A DNA stretch of 64,000 nucleotides from Pachysolen tannophilus NRRL Y-2460 (lineage: Eukaryota). The stretch's first letter is position 1; every line of letters starts with the position of its first letter. Below the pieces are notes generated by a model. It saw only the letters and a program-made list of their open reading frames with translations, was not told where the DNA came from and searched no databases. Positions 8,250 to 64,000 of this stretch are shown here, in pieces. The stretch is taken from contig KV454017.1 of assembly GCA_001661245.1 (NCBI GenBank), positions 1 through 64,000 of the forward strand, in the 5' to 3' direction. Position numbers and translations under genes: made by a program.

Positions 8250-11200
8250 ATGGATAAAGATCATTCCAATGGTAGTGGTAAAGTGGAGGAAAGTCATGGA
8301 AATGATGGACATAATGGAATTGATGGGAATGATGGAAATCGGGTAGTACCTGGGTTGCTTCGACATGCGCCTTCACAAGAGACGCTTGTATCTCGTGAGA
8401 AAGAAGGTGTTTCACCATCGTTGTCAATTAGAGTAGATGTTAATCTGGATGTTTCTGCTGAAGGGATTGATTCCTTTGCGTTATCTCCTAATGCTTCTGT
8501 TTCGTCTTCTGTGCATTCACCTTCGCTTAATGATGATTTATATAAAGTTGATTCAAGGTCTTTTTCAAGAAATCCATCTAGTACTTTAGATAATGTGAAA
8601 AATTTAAATATTGATCATAGAAGAAATTTTTCAATTGGTTCATCATCAATTTTTACTAGAAATAGTTTTGAAGAAGTTGGATCGATTTCATTGGGGGAAA
8701 ATAATGTTTCTACACGTAGTCTTTCACCATTAGGTCAAAATTCTATATTTGAAATTGTAACTGGTGCAGATAATTTAAGAAGAAAACAGGGGAAATTATG
8801 GTTAAGTGTTAATAATGGTACTACTACAATTCATATAAAAGGACCCACTATAAGAGATATACCACCAGTTCAATTATCAAAAATTGATAAAATTAACAAT
8901 ATTGAATTGAAAAATTATATACAAGCAATTAATGAAGATTATAAAGATTTTAATTCAAATAGAAAATTAACTCAAGAAACTTTAGAAAATTTGATGGAAA
9001 ATGAAAATGGTACTTCTAATGATGATTTACAAAATATTCCAGAACAATTTTTTAGTGAAGATTTCCATTTAGATGATCCTCGTACTTTTAAAGCTGTTAC
9101 TGAAAATTCAGATATTTTATTAAATAAAAATTATAATGGTGCAGATAATAATAAAGCATTAACAAATAATACAATTTTACAAGAAAAACTTTCTTGGTAT
9201 TTAGATACTGTTGAAATACATTTAATTAATGAAATTTCTAAATCTTCTGATTCATTTTTCAGTGCTTTAGATGATTTAAAAGAAATTACTAAAAGATCTA
9301 CAAATACAACAGAAGATTTAGCAAAATTAGATACTAAATTTGAACAATTAGATGAAACTCATGCACAAGTTGCTATTGATATAATGAAAAAAATTAAAAA
9401 AAGACAAAATATAGAAAAATTGGAAAATGGTTTATTACAAATAAAATTAATTATGGAACTTAGTGATACAGCAGAAACAGCTTATTATAATTCTCAATAC
9501 ACAAAGAGTTTAGATTTAATTGACTTGATAGAATCATTAATTAGAGGTTCAAATTCAAATGAAAATATAAAGCTGATTTTGGGTCAAAATGATAGATTTG
9601 AATTATATAACCTTCAAAATTTAGCTGCATTAGATAATTTGAGAAAATTATTACATAATTTGAAAGTTGATATTGGTAAATCATATACAAAATTGTTTGT
9701 TGGAATTTTATTTGATGATTTGAGAAATCATTATGAAAGTATTAAGAAACAAGATTCATTGGATAGAATATCTTATACTATTTCAAGGGAATCAAGAAAA
9801 ACCATCAACAAAACCCCTTCCATGCTGCAACAAATCGATAATTCATATCAAAAAATTGACGATAATTTTAAACAGGACATAAAAGAATATTTAGATGGGT
9901 TAATTAGATGTCATAAATTAATAGAATCATTTACTATTTATCGTGATAATTTAGTACCAGAGGTTAAAAGTATAATCCGAGAAAATTTACCAAATGAACT
10001 TATGATCAATGAAAATGATTCAACAACTTCATCTTCTAGACCACCACAGTCGTCAAGTGCTAGGTCTGGACAAAAATCAAGTAGTTTAGGTAGTAACTTA
10101 AGGGCAATGACACCTAAGGAATTTGAAGACATGTTAGTTAACATATATACAAAACTTTCTGAATGTTTAAGAAGATTAACAACCCATCAAAAATTTTTAT
10201 TAAATTTATCCTTAGACTGTTTATCAAATACAGAATTTTCTCAAGATGATCAATCCGATTTAATTATGAAATTAGATATTACACAATCAATTAATTTGTG
10301 CATTGAAACAATACAGATTAGAATGTCCAAAATTTTGATGACAAGAAGAGATCAGACAATAAATTTAAATTTAGAATTTTTCCTAAAATTTTATTCAATT
10401 AATGGTTTGTTTTTATATGAATGTGAATCCATAAGTGGATTCACAATAACAACAGTATTACAAGATACAGTAACCGATCAGACCAAATTATTTATGAATC
10501 AATATGGTAAAAACAGTTTGCAATTTTTAAACAGTTTTTTAGAAAAGGAAACTTGGAAAAGTATCAACTTGTCTTCATCTTTGCAAACTTCAGTTAACGA
10601 AATTTTAGAATCAGCAGATGAAGATCCTTCATCATGGCTAGATATAATGAAGTGGACCTCGAAAAATGAAAATGAAAATGAAAATGAAAAGACTGAACTG
10701 TCAGATACATCTTCTGAAAATGAAAGGAAAACTTTAATTGTTGACGATAAGTCATTTATTTTGCCTTCTTCTGTTAGCAATACTGTACAATTAGTTACTC
10801 ATTATTTAATTTTGAAAACAATTTTCCCACAGTATTTACATCAAATTGAAACCACGTTGATAGAAATATTAAAAGTTTACAATGATAAAGTTAATCAACA
10901 AGTATCAGGAGCAAATGCTACACATACTACCAATTTAAAATATATCACTTCAAAACATTTGGCAATTGCTTCTAATTTATTAGGATTTATGATAAGTTTG
11001 ATACCATATATTAAACGATCATTTGATAGAATGAAAAAAGTTGAAGATATAAATGATGATTTTGATAATTTGGCCAATGATTTCAAAGAACATCAATCTC
11101 AAATCTATACCAAATTAATTTCAATTATGAATGATAGACTTCTGCAGCATTGTCTGGAAATTAGAACTATCAATTGGTCAGAGCCTATAACACCAAATCA

Positions 11201-11504
11201 ATGTCATCATTATATGGAAGTATTAGTTAAAGAAACTACTACAATTGCTAAAGTCTTGTTAAAATGTTTACCTGAAGTTCAATGTTCATTAATGTTATCT
11301 CAAATTTTTGATAATTATAAGACTCAGTTAATTAATGAATATTCGAAATTAGAAATTAAGGATAGTATTCAAAAGGCTATCATTTTAAAAGATATTGATT
11401 ATTTCAGAGTTAACTTAAGCGATTTAATTGGTTATGGACAAAGTGGTCAAATGATTTGGGAAAGTGTTAATAATCTTAAAGAAACAGATCAACAAATTCA
11501 ATAA
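8250..11504 (+). CDS. VPS54: GARP complex subunit Vps54
   Basis: PTIRDIPPVQL, IPEQFFSEDFHLDDPRTF, LQEKLSWYLDTVEIHLINEIS, and the C-terminal Vps54 domain (GANATHTTNLKYITSKHLA). Confidence 0.93.
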   Translation: MDKDHSNGSGKVEESHGNDGHNGIDGNDGNRVVPGLLRHAPSQETLVSREKEGVSPSLSIRVDVNLDVSAEGIDSFALSPNASVSSSVHSPSLNDDLYKVDSRSFSRNPSSTLDNVKNLNIDHRRNFSIGSSSIFTRNSFEEVGSISLGENNVSTRSLSPLGQNSIFEIVTGADNLRRKQGKLWLSVNNGTTTIHIKGPTIRDIPPVQLSKIDKINNIELKNYIQAINEDYKDFNSNRKLTQETLENLMENENGTSNDDLQNIPEQFFSEDFHLDDPRTFKAVTENSDILLNKNYNGADNNKALTNNTILQEKLSWYLDTVEIHLINEISKSSDSFFSALDDLKEITKRSTNTTEDLAKLDTKFEQLDETHAQVAIDIMKKIKKRQNIEKLENGLLQIKLIMELSDTAETAYYNSQYTKSLDLIDLIESLIRGSNSNENIKLILGQNDRFELYNLQNLAALDNLRKLLHNLKVDIGKSYTKLFVGILFDDLRNHYESIKKQDSLDRISYTISRESRKTINKTPSMLQQIDNSYQKIDDNFKQDIKEYLDGLIRCHKLIESFTIYRDNLVPEVKSIIRENLPNELMINENDSTTSSSRPPQSSSARSGQKSSSLGSNLRAMTPKEFEDMLVNIYTKLSECLRRLTTHQKFLLNLSLDCLSNTEFSQDDQSDLIMKLDITQSINLCIETIQIRMSKILMTRRDQTINLNLEFFLKFYSINGLFLYECESISGFTITTVLQDTVTDQTKLFMNQYGKNSLQFLNSFLEKETWKSINLSSSLQTSVNEILESADEDPSSWLDIMKWTSKNENENENEKTELSDTSSENERKTLIVDDKSFILPSSVSNTVQLVTHYLILKTIFPQYLHQIETTLIEILKVYNDKVNQQVSGANATHTTNLKYITSKHLAIASNLLGFMISLIPYIKRSFDRMKKVEDINDDFDNLANDFKEHQSQIYTKLISIMNDRLLQHCLEIRTINWSEPITPNQCHHYMEVLVKETTTIAKVLLKCLPEVQCSLMLSQIFDNYKTQLINEYSKLEIKDSIQKAIILKDIDYFRVNLSDLIGYGQSGQMIWESVNNLKETDQQIQ

Positions 11505-13036: not shown

Positions 13037-13307
13037 NNNNNNNNNNNNNNNNNNNNNNNNNNNNNNNNNNNNNNNNNNNNNNNNNNNNNNNNNNNNNNNN
13101 NNNNNNNNNNNNNNNNNNNNNNNNNNNNNNNNNNNNNNNNNNNNNNNNNNNNNNNNNNNNNNNNNNNNNNNNNNNNNNNNNNNNNNNNNNNNNNNNNNNN
13201 NNNNNNNNNNNNNNNNNNNNNNNNNNNNNNNNNNNNNNNNNNNNNNNNNNNNNNNNNNNNNNNNNNNNNNNNNNNNNNNNNNNNNNNNNNNNNNNNNNNN
13301 ATATTAT

Positions 13308-13696: not shown

Positions 13697-14143
13697 TTAA
13701 TTTTGATCATCAGGTCTTCCAGCTGCTTGTGTTTCCTTCATTAACTCATATAACTATATATTAAAATAAGAAATGTTAGTTTTCAATTAGTTTTTTTATT
13801 ATATAGTTTTTTTTAAAAAAATACTTACTTGACCAATTTGATCAGGACTCATTTTATCTAAATCTTCTTTTTTCAATCTATGCTCCAACCAATTTCCTCC
13901 TTTTATAACACCAAGATACCCTTGCCATTCTGTTAAAAACCCAATTATATGTAATGGATTCTCTGTATCTTTATGAGCTTTAAATTCCAGACGAACATAT
14001 GCATCTCCTAATGCTCTTTGTGGACCAGGTAACACTCTATGAGCTCTTAAAATTTCTCGAAATAATTTTAATGGCGGGTATAATTGTGGAGTATCACGTA
14101 TAGGACGACGTGGTCTAACAAAACATACTAAACTCGATCTCAT
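13697..14143 (-). CDS. SDH7: Succinate dehydrogenase assembly factor 3 (LYR family), 2 exons: 14143-13829 and 13753-13697
   Basis: LYPPLKLFREILRAHR.LP..QRALGD.YV..EFKAHK...NPLHIIGFLTEWQ.Y. A 75-nt phase-0 intron has a GTAAGT donor (13828), an ACTAAC branch point (13780-13775) and a TAG acceptor (13754). Splicing restores the conserved QIGQ|LYELM. Confidence 0.92.
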
Positions 14144-23586: not shown

Positions 23587-25320
23587 TCATTCTGCTCCAT
23601 TGTAGTAGTGGAAGCTATGAGATGATCCAACATTTTCGTCTTCAATGTCAATGATCACAGATTGACTGTCCTTTTCACCATTGAAACTTTTTTCTATATC
23701 TTCTTCATTTTCAAGTTTCCCAACGTTTAAGTTCTTCAATGTAAATTCTTCCACAGCAGGTCCATTTAAATATTGTAATTGATCTTGAGGAAAAATTAAT
23801 GGGAAGAAACAAGAGAAAAAAATGGAAAATAACAATATTCCTGGGAAACCTACAGCTGCTCTAGTTTCAGTGATGGCAACTTCTGCAGACAGCATTAGTA
23901 TTTCGAATGATAAGAATAAATAAAACCATTTTTTGTCAACTTTCATCAAATCTGAATAATCACCTACATTTGTATCTTTTAGTAATAATGTACGTTTATC
24001 TGTACAAATAAATTTTAAATTCCTAGTTATATCATTGCCGTATAATCCAATAACTCCCATAATCCAGAAAAGACCAGCTAGTACTGCTTGTGGTATTGTT
24101 CCCAACACAACCAATAAGGGTCTTGTCATCATTCCAATTGTTAGTAATCCTTGTAAAGTGTTGGTGACTCTTTGTTCCACAACATCAACTGCTTTATTCT
24201 GACCTGTCTTGTAATCATACTTATATACACATAACGAACTTGTATGTAATGGAGCTTGTGGAATTAATCCATTTGGAGCTGGAATCCCCAATATTCCAGA
24301 AATTCCTGTAGTCAATCCCAATAGACAAAAATCCCAATGGAAAGATGCTGGTTTTTTCAAAGGAAATTCAGATCCTTGACACATTAAAGATGAAATATTA
24401 TGATCAAAATAAAATAAACATGTGAGTAATAACGCAAATGGTAAAGCTAAAAAGACATCTCCAACTTTAATGTCTTCCCAAAACCTAATAAACCAGTCAT
24501 CAGGTCTCAAATCAGACGTTGGATGGAAAGATCTTGTTATCGGTAATTTCTCCAAATTAACATTATTCATATATCCACCAAAATGAACAAATCCAGTGAA
24601 GAATACAATAGATAATGGAGTTCCATAATCAACCAAGAATTTTCTAACCATTGGCTTGAAAAATTGAGAGTTAATTCCAAGAAAATGAACGCCAGAACCA
24701 AACATAAACATTAATAAAGATACCATTACCGACATAAACCCACTATCAGTTCCATAATTAAACTGATTACATAGAATTTGAATTCCTTTTTGAATATAGA
24801 TGATATTTATGAAAACCCCAAAAACGTTACAAGAATATTTAGTAACATATCTTAAATAGTTGACCAGGTTTGTAAAAGCCAATATGAAATGGAAAAGCAG
24901 AGACCATAAACATATCCAACACATGAACAGAAAATACGGTATCCCCTTTGGCTCTATTATATCATAGACTGTATAATTGAAAATTGAAATGGGACCCGTC
25001 ACACCAACAATACATAATGGTTGACCGCTAAATAATCCGAAAACTATACCTCCCATAGCACTTGACAACAAAACTTCATTGACACCATATGATTTATGAG
25101 TCTTATCATACATATCAAGTGCAAAGGCAATCGCTGGAAGTAAGTTGGTGAAAAATATATAAACCGTCGCAGGAATAACCCTATAGTTTTTAAAACCATC
25201 AACAAAATCTGATTTGTAAAATACCAACCTTTCTCTTATATCTCGATATATACCTTTACCAAAAAATTTTACATGGTTTCTATAGGCCCCCTTCAAAAAC
25301 TTAATAACCTTTCTATTCAT
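23587..25320 (-). CDS. BOR1: SLC4-family borate transporter
   Basis: FFTNLLPAIAF, FSGQPLCIVGVTGP, LFYFDHNISSL, FPLKKPASFHWDF, NGLIPQAPLHT, VVEQRVTN. First ATG is at 25320. Confidence 0.93.
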   Translation of the reverse strand: MNRKVIKFLKGAYRNHVKFFGKGIYRDIRERLVFYKSDFVDGFKNYRVIPATVYIFFTNLLPAIAFALDMYDKTHKSYGVNEVLLSSAMGGIVFGLFSGQPLCIVGVTGPISIFNYTVYDIIEPKGIPYFLFMCWICLWSLLFHFILAFTNLVNYLRYVTKYSCNVFGVFINIIYIQKGIQILCNQFNYGTDSGFMSVMVSLLMFMFGSGVHFLGINSQFFKPMVRKFLVDYGTPLSIVFFTGFVHFGGYMNNVNLEKLPITRSFHPTSDLRPDDWFIRFWEDIKVGDVFLALPFALLLTCLFYFDHNISSLMCQGSEFPLKKPASFHWDFCLLGLTTGISGILGIPAPNGLIPQAPLHTSSLCVYKYDYKTGQNKAVDVVEQRVTNTLQGLLTIGMMTRPLLVVLGTIPQAVLAGLFWIMGVIGLYGNDITRNLKFICTDKRTLLLKDTNVGDYSDLMKVDKKWFYLFLSFEILMLSAEVAITETRAAVGFPGILLFSIFFSCFFPLIFPQDQLQYLNGPAVEEFTLKNLNVGKLENEEDIEKSFNGEKDSQSVIIDIEDENVGSSHSFHYYNGAE

Positions 25321-36555: not shown

Positions 36556-38241
36556 TTATTTTTGGTCTGATTCAACTAAGTTTTTGCCTCCTTCAAATTC
36601 AATATTAATTTTTTTCAAATTTGGGTATTCTTTAGTTAAACCTTGTTTAACTTTTGAAATAATATAACCTATTCTTTCTATAGTAATTTCTTTTTCATAT
36701 GAAGAATTATATTTATTAATATTCAAAGTTAAACATGCATTTAAATTTGCACCTGAAGGCATTAATGTTAAATCTTTTAATAAAAAATTTCTATCATTTT
36801 CCATAAGTAAGACATTAACCTTATTTTCAAAATCTGTATACCTTGGATCATCTTTTAAAATCAGTTTATCAATTAATTCTTTCCAAGCTTGAACAACACC
36901 ACTAACACCAACTTTAACAATCAAGACAGAAACCAATAATCCACCAACAGAATCTAACCAGTAGATGTTACAATAATAGCCAGCTGATATGGTAACTAGG
37001 GCAACAAATGATGTAAGAGAATCAACTCTATGATGCCAGGCATTTGCAATTAATACTTTTGAATTTTGAGTTTCACCAATTTTCTTTGTTACTCTAAATA
37101 ACCATTCTTTAACAAATATAGAACCTAAAGCAATCCAAGCAGCGTTAATATCAGCAACTTCATTTATTATACCAGTATTAGCTCCACCATTATCATGATC
37201 ATGATCATGGTCATGGCTCTGACCTTGAACTTGACCTGAAGAAATAACATCTGTAGCTGTTGATACTGTTGTTGGAGTTGTATGAACATGAGAATGAGAA
37301 TGAGCAGGAAGTAAACTTGTGAAAAAATCCATAACGTTATGAGGTAATAATGGAGTTAAAACATCTAATAATGAAGCCCAACCTATTTGTATACCAGCAT
37401 ATAATAATATTAAAGATACAAATAATGAACCAATAGTTTCAATTTTACCAAATCCAAAGGGATAAGCATCAATAGGTTTTTGTGCTGCACTATTTACTGT
37501 AGCTAAAGTTAAAATATCAGAAATTGTATCACTTACCGAATGAACTGCATCAGCCAATAAGGCTTGAGAATGGAAATAAACTCCACTAACACCTTTTGTA
37601 GCAGCCATCAGGATATTAACAGCCAACCCAATTAAAGTGATTTTAACACCTGGATTCGAACGGAATTCTGATGTGTCATATAATTTCAATTCTTGAACAG
37701 AATGGGCTCCATGAGTATGAGAATGACCATGATGATGATCATCATCATCATGGTCAGCATCAGAAGCATCTGCACCATTATTGGCATCACCATTTTTATC
37801 ATTTTTTTTACCTGATTTCAGTTTATATAAATGCTTTATTGGATCAATAAGAGGAACATGAGGATTGAAAAAATCTTTAGTCTTTGTCCAAAAATTCTCC
37901 TTCTTCTTGTTCAATTCAATTTCAAAATCTTCACCATCTAAATCCAAATTATCCAATTCTGGAATACCTGTATTTAACCGATTTTTTTTTAAACCACCAC
38001 CTTCTGACTTTGTATCAAGTGTACTACTACTATGAGAATGTGAATGAGAATGAGAATGTGAATTTAAATCTGTATCATGAGAATGTGAATGTCTCAACAC
38101 AAGATATTGTGAAAATTGTTTTTCAAATTGAAATTGAAATTGAAATTCAAATCGTCTCCCAATAAAATTTTTTTGAACATTATTATAATTGATCAAACTT
38201 AACCTCGATAAAGTTGAAAAATTGCTTCTAGCTATTATCAT
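36556..38241 (-). CDS. MMT2: Mitochondrial cation diffusion facilitator (Mmt1/Mmt2 iron exporter) with His-rich loops
   Basis: SQALLADAVHSVSD, YPFGFGKIE, KEWLFR, LIANAWHHRVDSLTS, plus a mitochondrial presequence. Confidence 0.88.
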   Translation of the reverse strand: MIIARSNFSTLSRLSLINYNNVQKNFIGRRFEFQFQFQFEKQFSQYLVLRHSHSHDTDLNSHSHSHSHSHSSSTLDTKSEGGGLKKNRLNTGIPELDNLDLDGEDFEIELNKKKENFWTKTKDFFNPHVPLIDPIKHLYKLKSGKKNDKNGDANNGADASDADHDDDDHHHGHSHTHGAHSVQELKLYDTSEFRSNPGVKITLIGLAVNILMAATKGVSGVYFHSQALLADAVHSVSDTISDILTLATVNSAAQKPIDAYPFGFGKIETIGSLFVSLILLYAGIQIGWASLLDVLTPLLPHNVMDFFTSLLPAHSHSHVHTTPTTVSTATDVISSGQVQGQSHDHDHDHDNGGANTGIINEVADINAAWIALGSIFVKEWLFRVTKKIGETQNSKVLIANAWHHRVDSLTSFVALVTISAGYYCNIYWLDSVGGLLVSVLIVKVGVSGVVQAWKELIDKLILKDDPRYTDFENKVNVLLMENDRNFLLKDLTLMPSGANLNACLTLNINKYNSSYEKEITIERIGYIISKVKQGLTKEYPNLKKINIEFEGGKNLVESDQK

Positions 38242-39263: not shown

Positions 39264-39347
39264 GGAGGGTTGGCCGAGTGGTCTAAGGCGGTAGACTTAA
39301 GATCTACTGGACAGACGTCCGCGCGAGTTCGAACCTCGCATCCTTCA
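39264..39347 (+). tRNA. tRNA-Leu, anticodon TAA, intronless, long variable arm
   Basis: Acceptor GGAGGGT/ATCCTTC+A, A box TGGCCGAGTGG, anticodon arm GTAGA-CTTAAGA-TCTAC, B box GTTCGAACC, downstream poly-T terminator. Confidence 0.97.
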
Positions 39348-39625
39348 TTAATTTTTTTTTTTTTTTTTTCTTACATCTACTTATTTTATATTTCACAAAG
39401 ATGAAAATAAAACTACAATTTTTTTTTCTTTACATGAATTATATTTCAGTTTATTCAGAATATAACGATCGTTAATTGTAGAGGGGGGGTCATAAAAAAA
39501 ACATATACAAAACTTTTTTTTTTTTTTTTGTTTTTTCATTCTTTTTTTTTTTATTTCAAGAGAAATTGTCATTTTTTAAATTGTGACTTCTTTATATAAC
39601 CAACATAAATATAATTACCATCCTT

Positions 39626-41656: not shown

Positions 41657-41905
41657 AATCAATATATATATTTTTTGATTTTATTAAACAATTAAAGTTA
41701 ACTCAAGTTGAGTAAAGTCTCTAACAAAAATAAATAATAATAATAATAATAATAATAAATTAATATAAATAATATAAAATCGGATAAAGTGGGCTAATCT
41801 AACTAAATTGTCTAAGATATAAAAAAACCAACTTTAAAAATAATTAATATACTTTTTATTGAAATGAATCAGAAAAAAAAAAAAAAAAAATTTTATAAAT
41901 TAAAA

Positions 41906-42289
41906 NNNNNNNNNNNNNNNNNNNNNNNNNNNNNNNNNNNNNNNNNNNNNNNNNNNNNNNNNNNNNNNNNNNNNNNNNNNNNNNNNNNNNNNNNNNNNNN
42001 NNNNNNNNNNNNNNNNNNNNNNNNNNNNNNNNNNNNNNNNNNNNNNNNNNNNNNNNNNNNNNNNNNNNNNNNNNNNNNNNNNNNNNNNNNNNNNNNNNNN
42101 NNNNNNNNNNNNNNNNNNNNNNNNNNNNNNNNNNNNNNNNNNNNNNNNNNNNNNNNNNNNNNNNNNNNNNNNNNNNNNNNNNNNNNNNNNNNNNNNNNNN
42201 NNNNNNNNNNNNNNNNNNNNNNNNNNNNNNNNNNNNNNNNNNNNNNNNNNNNNNNNNNNNNNNNNNNNNNNNNNNNNNNNNNNNNNNNN
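41906..42289. other. Assembly gap flanked by a near-identical ~55-bp sequence
   Basis: tactttttattgaaatgaatcag(A)n occurs at 41850 and again at 42290. Confidence 0.9.
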
Positions 42290-45718: not shown

Positions 45719-48700
45719 TCATTGGTCTTGATTAGTTTGAGTAATAATCTTTCCTTGTTCGTTCAGTTTATTTATTGCTTCTGGCTGTGTATTCTTTAAA
45801 GGTGAAAGTATAACCGGATTCTCATGATTTTCCGAAATTTCCTCCTCTCTTGATATTGGTAAATTAATTGAAGTGTCTTTAATTTCAAATGGGTTTTTTG
45901 GTGGTAGTGTAATTTGAGAATTTGGAATAAAAGATTTATTATTATTAAATTGATTATTTTGAACCTCGGGTATATTAGATATAGTAGTAGTCTCGATTCT
46001 ATTATCAATATTTAATTGAGGAGTTTGTGTTGTTTGAATTTTTACTAATTCATCCTGTTCTTGTTTTATTCTTAATTGCTCTTGCAGTTTTTTCTCATCT
46101 AATAATAATAGAATTTCTCTTAATTGATTATATTCTTTCTCAAATAATATAGAACATCCAGTTAATTTTCTTAAATAAAATCTAACTTTATAAATATTAT
46201 CCTCAATTATCATTTCAAAATTTTCATCCCATTTTAAATCTTTATTTAAAAAATCTTGTTTAAATTTTAAACAATTATTAACTGCTTCTTTAACTAAATT
46301 ATATTCTTCCATTGGTGGATATAATTTTAATTTTTTAAAATCATTTAAAAGTAAAATTAAATTTGATAAATTTGGTTTACTTAAATTATTAAATTTTTTA
46401 TTAAAATTTAAAAATAAATCATCAAAATTATGATTATGATCACAAATTGGACAAATAAAATTTTTATCTTTCATTTTTGATTTATTTGTATTAAAACAAC
46501 TTAAATGATACCATTCTGAACAATTTTCACATTCAACCATTGAACCACTTTCCATTAATCGACAAAGACAAAAAAATTTTTCATTTGATGATACATTTGG
46601 TGAATTGTTAAAATCAACAATATCTTCAGGATTACTTATATTAAGACAATTATTCACATTGTTTAACAAATTAACAAGATATGTTTTCAATACCATCAAT
46701 GAAGAATTTTGCTTATTACAAAATTTCCGAAGATTTTTTAACCATTCTTCTGTAGGTTTAAAATATTCAACTTCTAATTTTTTAACTTGTGGTGAATTAA
46801 ATTTTAAATGTTTAGTTTTTTCTAATAAAGATTTAACCTGACTATATTTAGGTAATGTGTCCTCATTTATTTCTCCATCAATATTTACCAATTTTTCAAG
46901 GAATTTTTCACTCTTAACCATTATATCTTCATACTCAGATTTAATTTTGATCAATTGATTTCTCAATTCAGCATCTATAGGATAATCATAAGATTCTTCT
47001 AATAATTTGCTAACTTCTGATATATTTGATTTATGAGTCTTATTTATAATTTGAGCAACGGAATCTGCTAAAATTTCAGTCTCTTTCAACTTACCTTCAA
47101 GTCTAGATATTTTATCATTATGGCCCTGTGACATTAAAGTTTTCCCTTCATCAATAAATTTCTTAAATGAAAATATGTCCTTGAATTTAGAAAGTAAACC
47201 TTCAGAAAAAATTTCTTCATACTTTAATAACCATGTTTCAATTTTATAGATCTTTGCCAATTTAGAAGCAGATGGAATATAAAAACCAAAAGACCTCCCA
47301 AGACTAACAATATTTGATAGTTCTTCAATATTTTCTTTGAAAAAATTTGGATAGTTGGTAGATGATGAAAGAAATTTCCTAGCATTTAATTCATACTTCT
47401 CAATCTCATTTGTCAAGTTCAACAATTGATCAATTTCTTCAGAATAAAAAAATAAGCCCGAAATATCTTCAACTAACTTACACAAACCATCAATATTCAA
47501 TTCAGCTTCCTCATCTACCGTTACATCATCATTTTGATCAGTACCATCAACGTTCGTACTATTGTATTCATCAATATCAAAATTTAAATTATTGTTAAAT
47601 CTCTTTCTATTAAGATTATTGCGAGTTCTTGATTGATGTTTTGAAGACAAATATTTTTGAGCAGAATCAACCCATGATTGATATCTTTCAATTAATTGAC
47701 CTAATCTTATAAAAGTAGAGTATATTTTGTATTCCTTTTCCTTATTATAAAAAAACTTCAAATAATCATCGTTGAAAATCTTTTCACCTTCAAAATATAA
47801 ATTTTTCAAAGATTTTAAAGAAGGCATTGAACTGGATTTTAAAAAATTTTGAAATTTTTCAAACCATTTACTAGAACTAGGTATATCTCTATTGAAAACT
47901 TTACCGAAACTTTTCAATTTTTCATCATCATAAAAAATATGTAATTCCACTGATTTTAATTTTTTCAAAAAAGAATCTTTTTTAGAATATTTCAAAAAAT
48001 TCTTTATTGAAATTGAAAATACTCTATCATCATTATTGCATAATATTACTTTTGATGGGAAACAAATTGCCAAATCATCATCGGATATATAATTATCATT
48101 AGTATTTGTAACTTCTTTCAACCCTTGAACTTTGTTTCTCAACTCATTTCTTAGAGTCAATTCCTCTTTTAATAAATTTTCATAAAGCTGTTTTGATTCT
48201 TGTAATATCAGAATATTTTTAACATTATTTTTAGCTATATTGATCAAGATTTCAAAAATTGAAAAATTTGGCATGATTCCTTGTTTCACCAACCAATTTT
48301 CAGATTCTTCACCAAATCCTAACCATGAAGGAGGAGCAAAGTTGATTGATTCACTCTTGGTAAAACCTAAACAAATATTTGATGAATAACATTTTGGATA
48401 TTTTATTATAAATTCTCCCAGTTTCTGATAAGTTTTGTAAACTCTAATACCCTTTGATTTCAAAAATTCCGGGGTTAAAAAGAAGTCATCGTTAAATTTT
48501 ATCTTCTGATTAGTATTTATTAATCCATTGTAAAACTTGTCTCTGTGTTCAAATCTTTTGTTCAAAGGATTTGCAACAGACGATGATAAAACTCTATTTT
48601 CTAAGCAGCAACTAATAAAATCCGGATCATTGAAATTTTCTTTAAATTTTGTTGGATTGAGAAAATATTCATTACTCTTATATTCATCTTTTCTTTTGAG

Positions 48701-50782
48701 AATGCAATCTTTTAATAATTTTTCAAAATTTTCATAATCATTTGGATCAATAAAATACCAAATTTTGCCATTTCCATAATGATTATAATCAATTAAGTGT
48801 AGCCAATGATCTTCCATTGTCCAATTTTCTGTGCTGAATAACATCCCAATATTGAGTGTCGGTTTTGTTAATGATTGAATATCATTTGATAAAAACCTAA
48901 AAATTGACTGATCGTTGATTGCTAAATTATTCAAGTTCCAACTACCCAAACCTTCATCGACTAAATTTTCCAAATTTTGTTCTAAATTTCCAGAATTAGA
49001 ACCAATTTGATAAAACCCCGAATCATGAATAGCAGTGGGCACTCTAATTGCTGCTTCTACTTCGTATAAGTTAGATGGATCTTGTTCTTCTACAAATCTC
49101 CAATAAGCATCTTCTAACTTTTGAGGTGTTAAGTTTGATGATGACGATGATGATGATGAATCATCAAACTTATATTTTGAAAATATTTTCTTTTGAAATT
49201 TCAAATTTTTTTCATAAAAATCTCTAATATTATAAAAAGGTGGTTTATTATTTAGATATGAAGATGGGTCAATAATGTCAAATTTAAAACCAGCTTGATC
49301 ATTCTTTAACCAGTCATGAAAATTATACGTTTCAAGAGAAGTTTTGTCACTTTTTGAAATTCCTTGTTTTTCTATTGTCAATGCATCAAAATTTGTTGGA
49401 AAACCTTTGGATATCAATAAATTTCTAGATCTCTTGTATTCGTAAGCAGATCCATATAAAACTGGTATTTTTATTAATTCATCATCTTCTAATTTCAATT
49501 TTTTTGTTCTTTGAGCCTCACTTTCATCTTGTTCTAATTTTACTCTCTTATTATTTTCATTAATTGAATCACATTTTTCAAGTTCAAGTTCGGATAAATC
49601 AAAATTTTTTAATATTTTTTCATAAATTTCTTTCAATTTTTCAGGAGCCAAAGGTTTCAGAAAATATCCAAGTTCATTCAGAATTTCTTTCCATAATTTT
49701 TGTTCACAAATCTTAGAAGATTGAATTTTTTCTTTAGCATATATCAGTAACCTATATAAATCCACTGGTTCATTTTCAATGTTTGGTAAATTTTTCAAAT
49801 GATTATTAGGGTCTGCATTCTGTCTTAAAGATTTAAATAATCGATTGTAAAAAAAAATTCTAAGATCCATTTCATCTTTTTTAGAATTTAATAATTGTCT
49901 TCTAGTTTGAAACCATAAATGTCTATCATTGATACTAGATTTATAAACTTTAGCATTCCATTTTTTACTTGGAATAATTTTAATAGCACCATATTTAGAA
50001 CCAATTTCTTTAAATTTTTCAGCAATTAAAATAGGATCATTTAAATTTGAATCCAATTTATCTAATTCTATAGTGGGTATACTTCCAGAAGTTTCTCCAT
50101 AATGATCATCTTCTTGAATTTCGTAAAAATTATAATTCCCAACAGTGGGAAGAGTTTCTTGAGGATAAAGAAATGGCACTCTTACTTTTGGTGCCAATAT
50201 TTTTGGTACTGATACTGGCCTTGGAGTTAATACTTGCCCTGGAGTATTTTCAGCCATTTGTTGCAATCTAAAATCAGCATTGATTACATTTGAGCCCAGC
50301 TTTGAGTTCTCAAAAAATCGATCTGTAGTTGCAGTGGTGGCAGTGGATTCACCGGAGGCACTACTAACAGCTGGCTCTGATTCGGAAAATCGATTTTTTC
50401 CTCCATCTTCTTGATTTTGAGGTATCTGTTGCTGATGCTGTTGCTGCTGATGCTGATGCTGATGCTGATGCTGTTGTCCAAAGTATGGATTAAGTGGTGG
50501 TTGTGGTGGTGGTGGCGGTAAGAAATAAACCTGCTGCTTAGCAACACTATCACTATCCGCTGATTGAGATTGTAAATCTGATTGTGAAGTACTCCTTACT
50601 TGAGGCACCTCTTTACGCTGAGCAGAATCAACCGCCTGGAAAACTGACATCACTGGTGCCAGCTGGAAACTTGGACTTCCTTCTGTTGTTGTTGCCGCTA
50701 CCGCCGTTGAGATTTCTTTTTGATCTTGAACTTCACCCTCAGCTTCCATTTTCCTATCCATCATCAAATCTTCTCCCGACAT
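45719..50782 (-). CDS. ECM5: JARID1/KDM5-family chromatin protein (JmjN, ARID, JmjC, PLU-1, PHD), Ecm5/Lid2-like
   Basis: JmjN (IPT...DP...GSKYGAIKIIP), ARID (LPNIENEPVDLYRL), JmjC (WNLNNL...GMLFST.NW..EDH...ESINFAP), PHD (FCLCR...MVECENCSEWYHLSC...FICPIC). Confidence 0.8.
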   Translation of the reverse strand: MSGEDLMMDRKMEAEGEVQDQKEISTAVAATTTEGSPSFQLAPVMSVFQAVDSAQRKEVPQVRSTSQSDLQSQSADSDSVAKQQVYFLPPPPPQPPLNPYFGQQHQHQHQHQQQQHQQQIPQNQEDGGKNRFSESEPAVSSASGESTATTATTDRFFENSKLGSNVINADFRLQQMAENTPGQVLTPRPVSVPKILAPKVRVPFLYPQETLPTVGNYNFYEIQEDDHYGETSGSIPTIELDKLDSNLNDPILIAEKFKEIGSKYGAIKIIPSKKWNAKVYKSSINDRHLWFQTRRQLLNSKKDEMDLRIFFYNRLFKSLRQNADPNNHLKNLPNIENEPVDLYRLLIYAKEKIQSSKICEQKLWKEILNELGYFLKPLAPEKLKEIYEKILKNFDLSELELEKCDSINENNKRVKLEQDESEAQRTKKLKLEDDELIKIPVLYGSAYEYKRSRNLLISKGFPTNFDALTIEKQGISKSDKTSLETYNFHDWLKNDQAGFKFDIIDPSSYLNNKPPFYNIRDFYEKNLKFQKKIFSKYKFDDSSSSSSSSNLTPQKLEDAYWRFVEEQDPSNLYEVEAAIRVPTAIHDSGFYQIGSNSGNLEQNLENLVDEGLGSWNLNNLAINDQSIFRFLSNDIQSLTKPTLNIGMLFSTENWTMEDHWLHLIDYNHYGNGKIWYFIDPNDYENFEKLLKDCILKRKDEYKSNEYFLNPTKFKENFNDPDFISCCLENRVLSSSVANPLNKRFEHRDKFYNGLINTNQKIKFNDDFFLTPEFLKSKGIRVYKTYQKLGEFIIKYPKCYSSNICLGFTKSESINFAPPSWLGFGEESENWLVKQGIMPNFSIFEILINIAKNNVKNILILQESKQLYENLLKEELTLRNELRNKVQGLKEVTNTNDNYISDDDLAICFPSKVILCNNDDRVFSISIKNFLKYSKKDSFLKKLKSVELHIFYDDEKLKSFGKVFNRDIPSSSKWFEKFQNFLKSSSMPSLKSLKNLYFEGEKIFNDDYLKFFYNKEKEYKIYSTFIRLGQLIERYQSWVDSAQKYLSSKHQSRTRNNLNRKRFNNNLNFDIDEYNSTNVDGTDQNDDVTVDEEAELNIDGLCKLVEDISGLFFYSEEIDQLLNLTNEIEKYELNARKFLSSSTNYPNFFKENIEELSNIVSLGRSFGFYIPSASKLAKIYKIETWLLKYEEIFSEGLLSKFKDIFSFKKFIDEGKTLMSQGHNDKISRLEGKLKETEILADSVAQIINKTHKSNISEVSKLLEESYDYPIDAELRNQLIKIKSEYEDIMVKSEKFLEKLVNIDGEINEDTLPKYSQVKSLLEKTKHLKFNSPQVKKLEVEYFKPTEEWLKNLRKFCNKQNSSLMVLKTYLVNLLNNVNNCLNISNPEDIVDFNNSPNVSSNEKFFCLCRLMESGSMVECENCSEWYHLSCFNTNKSKMKDKNFICPICDHNHNFDDLFLNFNKKFNNLSKPNLSNLILLLNDFKKLKLYPPMEEYNLVKEAVNNCLKFKQDFLNKDLKWDENFEMIIEDNIYKVRFYLRKLTGCSILFEKEYNQLREILLLLDEKKLQEQLRIKQEQDELVKIQTTQTPQLNIDNRIETTTISNIPEVQNNQFNNNKSFIPNSQITLPPKNPFEIKDTSINLPISREEEISENHENPVILSPLKNTQPEAINKLNEQGKIITQTNQDQ

Positions 50783-53097: not shown

Positions 53098-53196
53098 GTC
53101 CCTCGGGACATTTAGTCAATTTGAAACAATACAGAGAAGATTAGCATGGCCCCTGCATAAGGATGACACGCTTTACAAAGAGATTAAACCATTTTT
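53098..53196 (+). ncRNA. SNR6: U6 spliceosomal snRNA
   Basis: 5' hairpin GTCC-CTCG-GGAC, ACAATACAGAGAAGATTAGCATGGCCCCTGCATAAGGATGAC core (ACAGAGA box, AGC triad, ISL), oligo-T terminator. Confidence 0.97.
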
Positions 53197-53886
53197 TTTT
53201 ACTTCTTGAAAAATTCTTTTCTAAAAGAAAATGATCATGATGGTGGTAATGGTAACATTCAATAAGTGATCAACTTGTGACTTACAAGTGTAGTAAATTC
53301 AATTAAAACTTTACCAAATTTGAATGTTTTTATATTTGAAATTGTAATTTTTGGTAAATTTTGGTAAATTTTGTTTCCGGTTTCGATTCCCGAGTTGGGC
53401 CCAAAAAAACAATTTTTTTTTTTTTTTTGTTTTTGTTCACTTAAAAAAGAAAAAGCAAAGAAAAATAACTTAATAATGAACAATTTTATAGATATAATTA
53501 TGGTATTAAATATATAATATGCCTTCAAAAACGGAAATATTATTAACAATATTTACATCAATTTCAGTATACACTTTCTTATATGTTGAAGTTATACCAT
53601 TACCTTTAAATTTAGTTAATTATTTACCAAAAGTATGTATTTTTTTTTTTTTTTTTTTTTCAAAAAAAAAGATTTGACAGGGTTAGGGTACTAAAAAAAA
53701 AATGATTTTAATTTAAGGTTGGTTTTACCTACATTATAATTTATATTATTTATTTAATTTATTGTATGGTAATAAGACAAAATGAAAATTTCAATATAAA
53801 AGAAAAATTCAATAAAAGGGATTGAATATGATAAAAGAATGAAAATGAAAATGAAAATGAAAAATAAGTGAGTGAGTTTTTTCTTC

Positions 53887-54600: not shown

Positions 54601-54994
54601 CTCATTTATATATCTTTAATCTCATATATATAAATATTTAATTTTATATAAATATTATATAAAATTAATTATAATCTTTCTTTCCCTATAATAATAAAAA
54701 TACACCGTTAAATGACCAGGCCGAACTTCCGGTCAAAAAAATGTTCGGAATTTTTTTTTTTTGCTCTTTTTTTTTTTGCTCTTTTTTGGCAGAGTTTCTC
54801 TCAAAAATTCCGCCCAAGTTCCGCCCAAGTTCCGCCTAAATTTTTAACCAAACTTCCGCCTAAAAGACAAAGAAAGAATTTTGTATAATAATAAAGAACG
54901 AGTTGGTATAACGGCGGTTAAGTTTATGGCGGTTATAATAAATTAATTAATTAACAACAAGAAGAAGAAGAACAAGAAAGAAAAGTAAGTGATT

Positions 54995-56749
54995 ATGATT
55001 ATTAGGTTTCGTAGTAAAGATGGTATGTTTAGGGTTTCTGATATTGATGCTTTTTCAGAAGATTTAAAATCAATTGTGGAAACAAAACTTTTAAATAAAT
55101 TGCCACTAGGTGTATCTGTTAATTCTATATTTTTATCGGATAAGGCAAATGAAAAAGGTAAACCTTTAGATGAGTTTGTTGGTAAGGATTGTAACTCTTT
55201 AGGTTTGAAGAATGGGGATATGTTGTTTTTGAGTTATGAGGAGGAGAAGGAATCAGTGGATTCAACAGCTTCGGTTTCAGCTTCGGTGTCAGCACCAGAG
55301 CTGCTGGTGCTGGCTCTGCTGCTGCTGCTGGTATTACCGCCGTTAGAAAAAAAGCAATTACCTATTGATGACGAGTTGGATAAAGAAGAAGGATTAATCA
55401 AAAGACCAAGATCGAATTTTTGTAAGCATACAGATAAAGGTATGTGTGAATTATGTGTTCCATTACCACCTTGGGATAAAAATTATCAACAAGAACATAA
55501 TATTAAACATATTTCATATCATGCTTATTTAAATGAATTAAATGATAATAGTAATAAAAAAAATTCTTCATCATCATATATTTCACCATTAGAAGAACCA
55601 AATTTTAAAATTGATAAGAATTGTAAAGGAGGTCATCTGCCATGGCCAAATGGTATATGTTCAAAATGTCAACCTTCTGCAATAACTTTACTGCAACAAC
55701 CTTTTAGAATGGTTGATCATGTTGAATTTGGAAATAGTGAAATTATTAATAATTTTATTAATAGTTGGAGAAAATCAGGTAAACAAAGAATTGGACTTTT
55801 ATTAGGAAAATATGATAAATATGATAAAGTTCCATTAGGAATTAAAGCTCATGTTGAAACAATTTATGAATTCCCACAATTAGATGAAACTGATGGTATA
55901 ATTATACAAGATTTTAAATTAAATTTAGAAATTAATAAAATTATTAATTTTTTAAAATTAAAACCAATTGGTTTAATTTTTACAGATTTAACTGATTCAG
56001 GATTAAATAATGGATCAGTTTTATGTAAAAGACATAAAGATTCTTTCTTTTTATCATCATTAGAAGTTATATTTGCTGCAAAACAACAATTATCTCATCC
56101 AAATTATAGTAAATGGTCAGATTCAGGAATTTTTTCTTCAAAATTTATAACTTGTTGTATTACAGGAAATTTAAAAGGTGAAATTGATATTTTTTCTTAT
56201 CAAGTAAGTAATTCTGCTGAAAAATTGGTTGATGCTGATATAATTAGTGGTTCAACACATCCAAATGAAGTATTTATTAGTGAAACAAATAAAGATAGAT
56301 ATGTTCCAGAAATTTTTTATATGATGGTTAATGAATATGGTATTACTGTTAAAAAAAATGCAAAACCAAGTTTCCCAGTTGAATATTTAATTGTAACATT
56401 AACTCATGGTTTCCCACAATTAAAAGATGATGAAAAAAATTTATTTTTAAAAAATTCATTTCCAATTGAAAATAGAAATTATATTGGAGAATCACAAGAT
56501 TTATTGGCAATTAGTAAATCATTAGGTATTGAAAAAAATAATTATAATTTAGATTTACAAAAATTAAAATTTGGAATTTTTGATTTCCATCTTATTTGTT
56601 ATTTAATATCAGAATTAGATTTATTAAATGAAAATGAAAAAAATTTAATTTTAAAAACTGTTCGTGATAATTCAGATACTGATTTTTATCAATTATTAGA
56701 ATCACCAGGTTTCCAAACTTTGATTACAATCATAAGAGAAAGTATATAA
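54995..56749 (+). CDS. NPL4: Cdc48 cofactor Npl4
   Basis: MIIRFRSKDG, zinc fingers CKH...GMC..C and GH.PWP.GICSKCQPSAITL, FRMVDHVEF, FPVEYLIVTLTHGFP. Confidence 0.96.
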   Translation: MIIRFRSKDGMFRVSDIDAFSEDLKSIVETKLLNKLPLGVSVNSIFLSDKANEKGKPLDEFVGKDCNSLGLKNGDMLFLSYEEEKESVDSTASVSASVSAPELLVLALLLLLVLPPLEKKQLPIDDELDKEEGLIKRPRSNFCKHTDKGMCELCVPLPPWDKNYQQEHNIKHISYHAYLNELNDNSNKKNSSSSYISPLEEPNFKIDKNCKGGHLPWPNGICSKCQPSAITLLQQPFRMVDHVEFGNSEIINNFINSWRKSGKQRIGLLLGKYDKYDKVPLGIKAHVETIYEFPQLDETDGIIIQDFKLNLEINKIINFLKLKPIGLIFTDLTDSGLNNGSVLCKRHKDSFFLSSLEVIFAAKQQLSHPNYSKWSDSGIFSSKFITCCITGNLKGEIDIFSYQVSNSAEKLVDADIISGSTHPNEVFISETNKDRYVPEIFYMMVNEYGITVKKNAKPSFPVEYLIVTLTHGFPQLKDDEKNLFLKNSFPIENRNYIGESQDLLAISKSLGIEKNNYNLDLQKLKFGIFDFHLICYLISELDLLNENEKNLILKTVRDNSDTDFYQLLESPGFQTLITIIRESI

Positions 56750-56943
56750 TTTTTAACTATATCTATAACTATATATAGAGATAGCAATCATTAATTATCT
56801 GCTCTTATATTTAATAAAAGAAAAAGAAAATGAAAAGAAAAATGAAAAATTTAACAACTAATATCCCCTCTTCCTTGACGTTATCAATTTCATCATCCAT
56901 TTTCAAAATTGTTGTTGCTGGTTGAAATGTTCATCCAAAATCT

Positions 56944-56985
56944 TTCTGGAAGTTTCTGTTGCCGGTTTTTGGTCGCATCACGTGA
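56944..56985. promoter_or_regulatory. Heat-shock element (TTCnnGAAnnTTC, 56944-56956) and Cbf1 E-box (TCACGTGA, 56978-56985) upstream of SSE1
   Basis: Perfect three-unit HSE about 330 bp upstream of an Hsp110 gene. Confidence 0.75.
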
Positions 56986-57282
56986 TTTCCGAGGTAGTTT
57001 TCAAAATAGAAAAAAAAAGAAAACGAAAAATTTTCCGAAACAAAAATAAAAATTATTATTGAAATCATATTAAATATTGAATTTATTAAAATAATTCAAA
57101 GTTTACTTGATTGAATAATCATTGAATCAAATAGATAAAAGGAAGAAGAAAAGATTTTATCATTAGTTTTTTTTTCGTTTTTTTTTTAATCTTTTTTTTT
57201 TTTTTTTATTTTTTGGTAAAGTTTATTTGATATCTTAATTGATTGAAAAAAAAAAAAAGTAATTATATTAAAATAAAAGAAT

Positions 57283-59385
57283 ATGAGTGTTCCATTTGGT
57301 GTTGATTTAGGTAATAGCAATACTGTTATTGCAGTAGCCCGTAATAGAGGTATTGATGTTATTGTGAATGAAGTTTCTAATCGTTCGACTCCATCTGTTG
57401 TTGGGTTTGGTCCTAAGAATAGGTTTATTGGTGAGAGTGGTAAAAATCAGCAAACTTCTAATTTAAAAAATACTGTTGATAATTTGAAAAGAATTTTAGG
57501 TTTAAATTTCACTGATCCTGATCTTAAGATTGAAGAGAGATATCTTACTGTTCCAGTTGTTGATAAAGATGGTCAAGTTGCTGTTAAAGTTAGATTAGCA
57601 GGTAAAGAAGAAATTTTCACTTCAACACAATTAGTTGGAATGTATTTAAATAAAATTAAAGATATTGCTGTTAAGGAAACAAAGGGTAAATTTACAGATA
57701 TTTGTTTAACTGTTCCAGTTTGGTATACTGAACAACAAAGACGTGCTGCTCATGATGCTTGTAGAATTGCAGGTTTAAATCCAGTTAGAATTGTTAATGA
57801 AATGACTGCTGCTGCTGTTAGTTATGGTGTTTTTAAAACAGATTTACCTGAAGATGAACCTAAAAAAGTTGTCTTTATTGATATTGGTCATTCAACTTAT
57901 TCTGTTTCAGTTGTTGCTGTTAAGAAAGGTGAATTGAAAGTCTTGGGTTCAAGTTCTGATAAACATTTTGGTGGTAGAGATTTTGATCATGCTATTGCAG
58001 AACATTTTGCTGATGAATTCATTACTAAATATAAAATTAATATTAGAGAAAATCCAAAAGCATATTCAAGAGTATTAACTGCTGCTGAAAAATTGAAAAA
58101 AGTTTTATCTGCTAATTCTCAAGCTCCATTTAATGTTGAATCTATTATGAATGATGTTGATGTTTCTTCTCAATTAACAAGAGATGAATTGGAAGAATTT
58201 GTTAAACCATTATTGGAAAGAGTTCATATTCCAATTGATCAAGCTTTAAGTCTGGCTGGTTTACAAAAAGAAGATATTGATGCAATTGAAGTTATTGGTG
58301 GTTGTACAAGAGTTCCTTCTTTAAAAGCAAGATTATCTGAAATTTTTGGTAAACCATTATCTTTTACTTTAAATCAAGATGAAGCAATTGCTAGAGGTGC
58401 AGCTTTTATTTGTGCTATGCATTCTCCAACTTTAAGAGTTAGACCTTTTAAATTTGAAGATTTTAATCCTTATTCAGTTTCATATTTTTGGGATAAAGAA
58501 GATGAAGATACTGATAATTTGGAAGTTTTCCCTAAAGGTGGTTCATTCCCATCAACTAAAATTATTACTTTATATAGATCAAAAGATTTTGAAGTTGAAG
58601 CAAAATATACAAGACCAGAAGAATTACCAAAAGGTAGTATTTCAACACCGTTTATTGCAAAATGGTTTTTAAAAGGTGTTGTTTTAAATGAAGGTGAATC
58701 ATCAATTGCTTGTAAATTAAAATTAAGAAATGATCCATCAGGTTTTTATACTATTGAATCTGCTTACACTGTTGAAGAAAAAGAAGTTCAAGAATTAGTT
58801 GAAAATCCAGATGCAAAAGAAGATGATGAACCTGAATATAAAACTGTTAAAAAATTAGTTAAAAAAAATGATTTACAAATTGAACTTCAAACATTATCAT
58901 TACCAAAGAAAATTTTATCAGAATATATTGAAAAGGAAAATTCATTATCTCAAGAAGATAAACTTGTTGCTGATACTGAAGATCGTAAAAATGCTCTTGA
59001 AGAATATATTTATGAATTAAGAGGTAAATTAGATGATCATTATAAAGAATTTGCTTCTGAAGATGAAAAACTGAAATTACAAGAAATGTTATTAAAAGCA
59101 GAAGATTGGTTATATGATGAAGGTTATGATTCTTCAAAGGGTAAATATATTGCTAAACATGAAGAATTAGCTTCAATTGGTAACGTTATTAGAGGTAGAT
59201 ATTTGGCTAAAGAAGAAGAAAAAAAACAAGCCTTAAGATCACAACAAGAAGCTAAACAAGCTGCTGCAATGGCTGAGAAATTAGCTGCTGAAAAAGCTGC
59301 AAGAGATGCTGCTGGAACCACCAATAGTGAAGCTGAAAAGAAAGAACAACAATCTGATGAAAAAATGGATGAAGAACTCGATTAA
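57283..59385 (+). CDS. SSE1: Hsp110 chaperone / nucleotide exchange factor
   Basis: [70 protein letters not shown]. Confidence 0.97.
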
Positions 59386-60063: not shown

Positions 60064-62262
<2,199 letters not shown>

Positions 62263-62464: not shown

Positions 62465-64000
62465 CTATACATTATATTCTACAATTTCGTTGCAAGTCTC
62501 TTTTAAATCACTAGTATAATCCTGATCTAATTCATCTTTTAAATTGTTCAAGATCTTAGCACAATCATACTTGAGATTATTCAACAATGCATTATACCCT
62601 GTTCTCTTGTTATTGTCATTGTCATTATCAGAGTTGGAATTTTTAAGAATAAGCCAAATGTTTTGTAAGAATTGGTTCAACTGGTTGATATTAAGGTTGA
62701 AAAATTTTGTTATAATTTCTTTATTTGATAATAAAATACCTAAAGTTTTAACCTTTGCAAATAAATATTCAAATGGCACAGAAGAAGATAATTTTTTTTG
62801 GGATTCATCAATGAAAACATATTTCAATAGGCAATTGATGTGTATATCATTTTCAATTTTAAAATCAGTCCTTATGTATATGGCATCTAAAGTCTTGTAT
62901 ATCAACATCAAATTTTGATAAAAAAGTGATTCATGAGATTTAATATTCAGAGTATTTTCGTATTCATCAATAAATTTACAAATAATTTTGCTAAATAGTT
63001 GATAATAAAAATCATCATTGAGTAATTTGGACAAAAGAATATCATCAATATTATTTATAAATTTGTGTAAAAATTTAGACATCATGAGTGAAATTTCACC
63101 ATAATAAGTAAGTAATTCTTTATTTCCATAATAAAATTTAACTGATTCTAATAAATAATTATAATATTGATGATTTTCATCATGGAAAAAATGGTTTAAA
63201 CTAGGATCCCAAATTTGAATTAATAGATGAATACTTTGTAAATTTATAAAATCAATCTTATCACCTCTTTGCAGTTTCTGGATATAATTATACAAAAATT
63301 CAAAATCTTTCATAACTATGGTTTCATTTTTTGCAAGTAATTCCAATTTTTCCTTATCGTTATTAATGGAATTCCCAATAATGATAAAATTTGAAGCTAT
63401 AACGTATGGGTTTTCATAATTTTTAAGAATTTCAAAATTATCATTAATTTCTAACTTATTACTATTTTGTTCAAGAGCTGAAATTGATCCCATTATACTA
63501 AATATGATTTTGGAAAATTCAATTATCATTGGATTTTTCAAAAATAAAATTTCACTTAATTTTGAAAGATATAATTGTAGATGGAATTCAAATTCTTCTT
63601 TATCAGAAAATTCAAGTTTAAATTTGGATAAATTATTCAAAAGTAGAAAATAAGGTTCCAATTCTTGTTCAATTATCTGATTTTTAGAATTTATAATATT
63701 TAATAAATAACTTATATATTCCTGAAATTGAGAAATGGGAATTTTATAATCTTGAAAGTCTTCTTTTGTAAAATCTGTTAATAATTCAATAAGTTCCAAA
63801 TCTGTATTATCTTTTTCTCTTAATATACATTTAAGCAATACTTCAATTGCAATTTTAAATTGTGGTAATTTTTTTAATGATTTAAGAATTTGTTCATTAT
63901 CCATTATTAAATTTTGTAAAAAAATAATTGTTCTTTGCTGATAAACGTTATTAGGTAATATATCTGATAAAATCTTCCCCACCAACAACTTTTGTTCAAT
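62465..64000 (-). CDS. 3' part of a helical/ARM-repeat-like protein (possibly Bem4/SmgGDS-like); the start lies beyond the window
   Basis: The reading frame stays open to the window edge for over 500 aa, with amphipathic helical composition. The family guess comes from weak resemblance (IMGSIS...IIIGNSI). Confidence 0.45.
   Translation of the reverse strand: MEQKLLVGKILSDILPNNVYQQRTIIFLQNLIMDNEQILKSLKKLPQFKIAIEVLLKCILREKDNTDLELIELLTDFTKEDFQDYKIPISQFQEYISYLLNIINSKNQIIEQELEPYFLLLNNLSKFKLEFSDKEEFEFHLQLYLSKLSEILFLKNPMIIEFSKIIFSIMGSISALEQNSNKLEINDNFEILKNYENPYVIASNFIIIGNSINNDKEKLELLAKNETIVMKDFEFLYNYIQKLQRGDKIDFINLQSIHLLIQIWDPSLNHFFHDENHQYYNYLLESVKFYYGNKELLTYYGEISLMMSKFLHKFINNIDDILLSKLLNDDFYYQLFSKIICKFIDEYENTLNIKSHESLFYQNLMLIYKTLDAIYIRTDFKIENDIHINCLLKYVFIDESQKKLSSSVPFEYLFAKVKTLGILLSNKEIITKFFNLNINQLNQFLQNIWLILKNSNSDNDNDNNKRTGYNALLNNLKYDCAKILNNLKDELDQDYTSDLKETCNEIVEYNV

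Follow-up and report, generated by a model that had tools for sequence, protein, structure and literature searches.

Genes and features of the region

The window, by which we mean the whole 64,000-nucleotide stretch of DNA analysed here, is gene-dense budding-yeast DNA with a G+C content of 28%, in which 24 ORFs were examined. The features discussed below, among them the Npl4 gene with a CTG-rich run in its linker, are collected in Table 1. No tRNA with a CAG anticodon was found in the window; the sole credible tRNA is a tRNA-Leu(UAA), and the candidates listed by ARAGORN, run on the window with introns allowed and a relaxed threshold, were low in G+C, poorly paired and in no case CAG. Three ORFs on the minus strand, 6899-7822 (307 aa), 18163-20796 (877 aa) and 62465-63904 (479 aa), had no Pfam match at E 0.001, and a 147-aa ORF at 41864-42307 was rejected as an artefact of the second N gap.

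The Npl4 gene adjoins an SSE-type Hsp110 gene (54995-59385); in Saccharomyces cerevisiae, NPL4 (YBR170C) and SSE2 are adjacent as well. The divergent promoter between Npl4 and an Oxidored-like gene contains four copies of TTCCGCCYAA (54808, 54819, 54830 and 54854, the first three being 11 bases apart), and this cluster, spanning 54808-54863, is possibly a group of putative transcription-factor sites.

Table 1. Positions of the genes, RNA features, gaps and CTG sites in the window
Feature	Position	Strand	Remarks
Vps54 gene	8250..11504	+	6 CTG; deposited sequence has Ala at 6/6
N gaps (two, 648 bases)	13037-13300 and 41906-42289		
Sdh7-like LYR protein, CTG residue 52	13988..13990	-	Pfam: Leu 66.4, Ser 69.7, Ala 69.4 bits
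Bor1 gene	23587..25320	-	4 CTG (24930, 24900, 24867, 23892); column counts and tree
Mmt-like cation-efflux protein, CTG residue 460	36862..36864	-	Position confirmed
tRNA-Leu(UAA)	39263-39348	+	Only credible tRNA in the window
676-aa protein, Ada metal-binding domain and weak AraC-type HTH	39626-41656	-	6 CTG, two of them in a doublet; the C-terminal tail is long and of low complexity
ARID/JmjC/PLU-1 protein, CTG residue 788	48419..48421	-	Column P10 C2 A1 of 13
ARID domain, three CTG (residues 346, 368, 375)	49658..49747	-	Pfam ARID: Ala 50.3, Ser 46.7, Leu 46.2 bits
Gas CTG sites	52301/52340/52493/52520		Position confirmed
U6 snRNA	53098-53197	+	99.7 bits
Npl4 gene	54995..56749	+	584 aa, 10 CTG codons; table-26 translation identical to public record
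CTG-rich run	55301..55330	+	Npl4 variable linker, between N-terminal domain and zinc-finger region; poly-Ala under table 26
Npl4 CTG residue 215	55637..55639	+	Column E68 A26 K7 L6 D4 S4 Q3 of 120
Npl4 CTG residue 233	55691..55693	+	Column Q101 K8 S7 L2 of 120
Sky1 CTG residue 557	61735..61737	+	S. cerevisiae Sky1 has Ala here, human SRPK1 has Ser

CTG codons and the CTG-rich run of Npl4

CTG accounts for 77 of the 14,882 codons in the window, and 19 of the 24 ORFs contain at least one. Its share of the CTN box is 24%, with a G/A ratio of 1.28 as against 0.06-0.56 in the seven other four-codon boxes; CTG thus departs from the bias seen in the rest of its own box, which counts against a Leu reading. 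The shares of the four CTN codons (0.48/0.09/0.19/0.24) are close to those obtained for the Pachysolen genome from the codon counts of PMC5951914 Supplementary Data 2 (0.47/0.10/0.21/0.22), a source from which, besides Pachysolen, only Alloascoidea was compared in full.

In Npl4, codons 103-112 read (CTG)2-GTG-CTG-GCT-(CTG)5, confirming from the ORF itself the eight CTG in ten codons reported earlier for this site. With the 66 CTG among 14,182 codons in the other ORFs as background, the binomial probability of such a run is 1e-17 per codon window and about 1e-13 over all such windows. The reading frame is anchored downstream, where, starting with the motif KQLPIDDELD, the product could be aligned to the Npl4 chain in structures from S. 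cerevisiae. All of 218 31-mers sampled from 54800-57000 (share 1.00) were present in contigs assembled from five sequencing runs, arguing against an assembly error in the CTG run; one of the five runs is a possible source of the sequence and the remaining four come from one study, so that they do not represent independent biology. No RNA run was among those listed as matching words from the same interval. Two further CTG-CTG doublets, both on the minus strand, were noted at 34122-34127 (residues 85-86 of a Zn-cluster protein) and 40184-40191 (residues 490-491 of the Ada-like protein), compared with about 0.3 expected by chance according to our own estimate.

The homologous Npl4 linkers (n = 120) average 34 aa and consist of 16% Ser, 10% Thr, 10% Ala and 3% Leu, with Pro also enriched. 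When CTG is read as Ser, the run becomes SSVSASSSSS and extends the SASVSA repeats that lie upstream. The Ala and Ser readings fit the linker equally well, and the run is uninformative between them.

Comparison of CTG positions with homologous proteins

Column scores were calculated for four proteins, with 120 homologues each for Bor1 and Npl4 and, besides the window proteins themselves, 13 for the ARID/JmjC protein and 149 for Vps54. Thirteen CTG columns were gap-poor and outside the linker; a second score, over 24 columns, keeps the eight unalignable linker columns and three gappy columns that the first leaves out. The summed log-odds over the 13 columns were -5.7 bits for Ala, -7.3 bits for Ser and -28.3 bits for Leu, placing Leu about 22 bits under both, and over the 24 columns they were -0.1 bits for Ser, -5.9 bits for Ala and -50 bits for Leu. 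As for control codons, CTA, CTC, CTT and TTG scored Leu first, GCN scored Ala, TCA, TCG and AGC scored Ser, and TCC narrowly scored Ala. In addition, among 13 Pfam domains holding CTG codons, Ala scored above Leu in 11 (+19.6 bits in sum) and Ser above Leu in 10 (+14.4 bits; both sums are our own), with Ser exceeding Ala in seven and Ala exceeding Ser in six. CTG in the window is not translated as Leu: the column scores, the Pfam domains and the bias of the CTN box are all against it, and the preliminary description was right on this point.

The same tabulation did not resolve Ala over Ser. Ala is the majority residue at none of the CTG columns and Ser at none of the 13 gap-poor ones, and by themselves the columns leave the two residues unseparated. 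The earlier remark that several sites would also fit Ser was thus well founded, since neither the columns nor the linker distinguish the two. A classifier based on flanking residues, which worked for most control codons (GCG, GCC and GCA were called Ala, and TCG and TCC were called Ser), placed Gln first at 69 CTG sites, followed by Leu at -7, Ser at -15 and Ala at -30 bits. Four of the 13 columns are led by residues with codons that a single base change would turn into CTG, namely Pro (94/120), Met (117/120, at Bor1 residue 141), Gln (101/120) and Pro (10/13). From such columns we infer that most CTG codons in the window are probably point mutants at tolerant sites and not recoded Ala positions.

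The sites leaning most towards Ala were Npl4 residue 215, Sky1 residue 557, Vps54 residue 965 (A20, S9 and L8 of 125) and the ARID domain, where Ala outscores Ser by 3.6 bits. For Sky1, both the position and the Ala of the S. cerevisiae protein agreed with the preliminary description, but the Ser of human SRPK1 means that the site is not specific for Ala. Similarly, the JmjC motif QK[CTG]GEFI, which had been compared with the AGEF of KDM5, lies at 48421-48419 as described, but the comparison carries less weight than claimed, with Pro in 10 and Ala in only one of the 13 homologues. The CTG codons of Mmt (36864-36862), Sdh7 and Gas are where the preliminary description put them, and the Gas sites fall outside the PDB alignment. 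Elsewhere, the CTG at residue 108 of the sugar transporter corresponds to Leu in the three distant structures listed, that at residue 287 of Nuc1 has Ser and Lys among three structures listed in the PDB search, and those of Sse1 correspond to Gln and Thr in yeast Sse1; the structures for Nuc1, Gas and Sse1 thus gave no separation of Ala from Ser. A metagenome scan with Sse1 returned three loci, in which the two CTG columns were occupied by Asp (2/2) and Glu (1/1) and so carried no information on the residue.

Phylogenetic position

Trees were built by a quick method under LG+G4 from 33 of 120 Npl4 and 25 of 120 Bor1 homologues, in each case a hand-picked named set plus four others, with X at CTG positions and no named Alaninales sequence among the rows. 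In the Bor1 tree, the window sequence and one relative (support 99) were sister to Pichiales (90; Pichiales 97), and grouping with the core Ser-clade rows was marginally rejected by the AU test (p-AU 0.047). In the Npl4 tree, the window sequence fell in a group with 10 Pichiales (99), apart from Ser1 (100) and Ascoidea, and in AU tests neither a placement with Ser1 (p 0.195) nor one with Ascoidea (p 0.158) was rejected. Both best trees thus place the window outside Serinales and Ascoideales, statistical rejection being marginal only. These two genes support a position beside or among Pichiales, where the CUG-Ala order Alaninales sits; Pachysolen has been described as sister to Pichiaceae/Ogataea (PMC4986446), and the Ala clade as sister of the Leu2/Pichiales group (PMC5951914).

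The sister sequences themselves provided a further clue. Specifically, P0127 has Leu at two of 14 conserved-Ala columns, alone among the 120 in having two, and at none of 30 Ser columns, and P0005 has Leu at one of 23 conserved-Ala columns (a column with 96% Ala) and at one of 19 Ser columns, suggesting that these may be sequences of CUG-Ala relatives translated by the standard code.

In the Bor1 tree, P0123, the Bor1 of Saccharomycopsis crataegensis (Ser2 clade), nests among Serinales rows (100), pointing to transfer, paralogy or a mislabelled sequence.

Probable assignment of CUG to alanine

Exact look-ups in NCBI/UniRef retrieved the table-26 translation, letter for letter, for seven of eight proteins (Npl4, Sse1, the sugar transporter, Sky1, Nuc1, Gas and Mmt), but none of the eight Ser versions and none of the three Leu versions that were looked up. 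The deposited ARID/JmjC protein has Ala at nine of nine CTG sites. Overall, public records were found for nine of the 10 proteins tested, with Ala at 41 of 41 CTG sites, although such translations show which table the annotators chose and so are annotation, not independent proof of Ala. None of the full-ORF translations of Bor1 under three tables was present in the public collection by exact look-up, probably because the start codon differs there.

We conclude, with a probability of roughly 94%, that the window is nuclear DNA of an Alaninales yeast using NCBI table 26, which is named after Pachysolen and in which CUG is Ala. The species is most likely Pachysolen tannophilus. The preference for Ala over Ser comes from the public table-26 records, the position in the trees, and the mass spectrometry and tRNA-Ala(CAG) published for Pachysolen (PMC4937558), and these also bear out the earlier suggestion that Ala is favoured and that the yeast is Pachysolen-like. 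The code itself is already described: it was published in 2016, is listed as NCBI table 26 and defines an order. For Pachysolen, PMC4937558 reports that LC-MS/MS found Ala at 97.2% of 907 fragment-supported CUG positions, that the tRNA(CAG) has G3:U70 and A73, that CUG is as unambiguous as AUG, and that 80% of the genes are affected. The same code has been reported in Nakazawaea and Peterozyma (PMC5951914), and PMC11182611 treats CUG as Ala as diagnostic for Alaninales, for which it also gives an order-specific protein family, OG0016373. In the NCBI taxonomy, the order comprises three genera, Pachysolen, Nakazawaea and Peterozyma.

With Pachysolen tannophilus (table 26; Muhlhausen et al. 2016, PMC4937558), the window shares CTG positions lying off Leu columns and public Ala at 41/41 sites; the CTN shares, the weak Ala signal of the columns and the position beside Pichiales all match as well, and no difference was found. 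In PMC5951914 Supplementary Data 2, which like the rest of that supplement gives codon-by-residue matrices and no peptide lists, Pachysolen CTG is at Ala in 30% of 554 sites, with Leu at 87, Pro at 53, Gln at 40 and Ser at 24. The corresponding values are 67% and 60% for two Nakazawaea and 49% for Peterozyma (among the CTG rows listed, 18 of 54). Within Alaninales/Pachysolenaceae, the weak Ala signal of the window is thus nearest that of Pachysolen, as far as these listed rows allow the comparison.

If CUG were instead Ser, as in the Ser1 or Ser2 clades (table 12), the public record would have been translated with the wrong table. Several of the results described above would accommodate this, namely the continuation of the SASVSA repeats, the tie in the column scores, the seven of 13 Pfam domains won by Ser and the Npl4 AU tests. 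There is also a precedent, as Ser was assigned to Pachysolen in 2014 from alignments alone (PMC4986446), a call that those alignments gave because CTG lies mostly at variable sites, as it does in the window. That call, however, was later overturned by proteomics (PMC4937558), and for the window itself the best trees of both genes, the marginal Bor1 rejection, the absence of all eight Ser translations from public collections and the Leu residues at Ala columns of the sister sequences make Ser highly improbable. The CUG-Ser codes of Serinales (Ser1) and Ascoideales (Ser2) resemble the present case in that the codon was lost from Leu through an anticodon-mutated tRNA and in that CTG likewise occupies small-residue, poorly conserved sites, but they differ in the amino acid and in the donor tRNA, and the window genes group elsewhere.

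Mixed decoding of the kind known from Ascoidea asiatica (Ser/Leu), here with CUG partly Ala and partly some other amino acid, might be suspected from the way CTG shuns conserved sites and from the lack of a strong residue signal in the window, but the same weak column signal is seen genome-wide in Pachysolen (PMC5951914), where CUG is nonetheless unambiguous (PMC4937558), and we give this explanation hardly any credence. Equally, the standard code, with the run as a hydrophobic or mis-assembled stretch, has almost no probability: it suits residue 108 of the sugar transporter and residue 141 of Bor1, where the column is Met, and comes second in the flank-residue classifier, but it is opposed by the 22-bit deficit at columns where true Leu codons do score Leu first, by the scarcity of Leu in homologous linkers, by the departure of CTG from its box bias and by the absence of deposited Leu translations, and mis-assembly by the matching of the sampled words to contigs from five runs.

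Under the Ala assignment, and following what has been published for Pachysolen, the ancestral tRNA-Leu(CAG) would have been lost and CUG codons would have dwindled in the lineage of the window, after which a tRNA-Ala whose anticodon had mutated to CAG may have captured CUG. Such a tRNA would keep G3:U70 and A73, which are read by the alanyl-tRNA synthetase. The present-day CTG codons may have arisen mostly by point mutation of the neighbouring codons CCG (Pro), CAG (Gln) and ATG (Met) at tolerant sites, because no single silent change leads from GCN to CTG; an origin of this kind would leave CTG in variable columns with a weak Ala signal.

Possible origin of the CTG-rich run

When the run is read one base earlier, it becomes an Ala/Gly/Ser tract based on GCT and GGT and made up of common codons, whereas the annotated frame contains the rare codons CTG, GTG and, twice, CCG. 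Among 5,510 windows having a stop-free alternative frame, the 16 codons at 55301-55348 were the top off-frame outlier, at +21 bits compared with +16 for the next. Seven of the 16 residues are common to both frames under table 26 and none under the standard code. It is conceivable, though we consider it unlikely, that the run is an ancestral GCT/GGT (Ala/Gly) tract that a pair of compensating indels has shifted by one base. Such a frameshift would be tolerable because GCT and CTG both specify Ala, so that (GCT)n reads as Ala in two of its three frames. Simple slippage within a CTG repeat accounts for the +21 bits nearly as well, since most of them stem from CTG being rarer than GCT, and the homologous Npl4 linkers are too divergent to choose between frameshift and slippage. 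Among the matches listed from the literature on frameshifts, polyalanine and CUG, none named Pachysolen.

Significance

Reassignment of a sense codon in nuclear genes is rare, and here it was recoverable from raw sequence without tools. In practical terms, the standard code would mistranslate the 19 ORFs with CTG, and to our knowledge few other annotated genomes are on table 26. If the compensated frameshift were true and general, CUG-Ala yeasts would have poly-Ala tracts that tolerate frameshifts and, with them, an almost silent way of turning GCT codons into CUG that is closed to point mutation.
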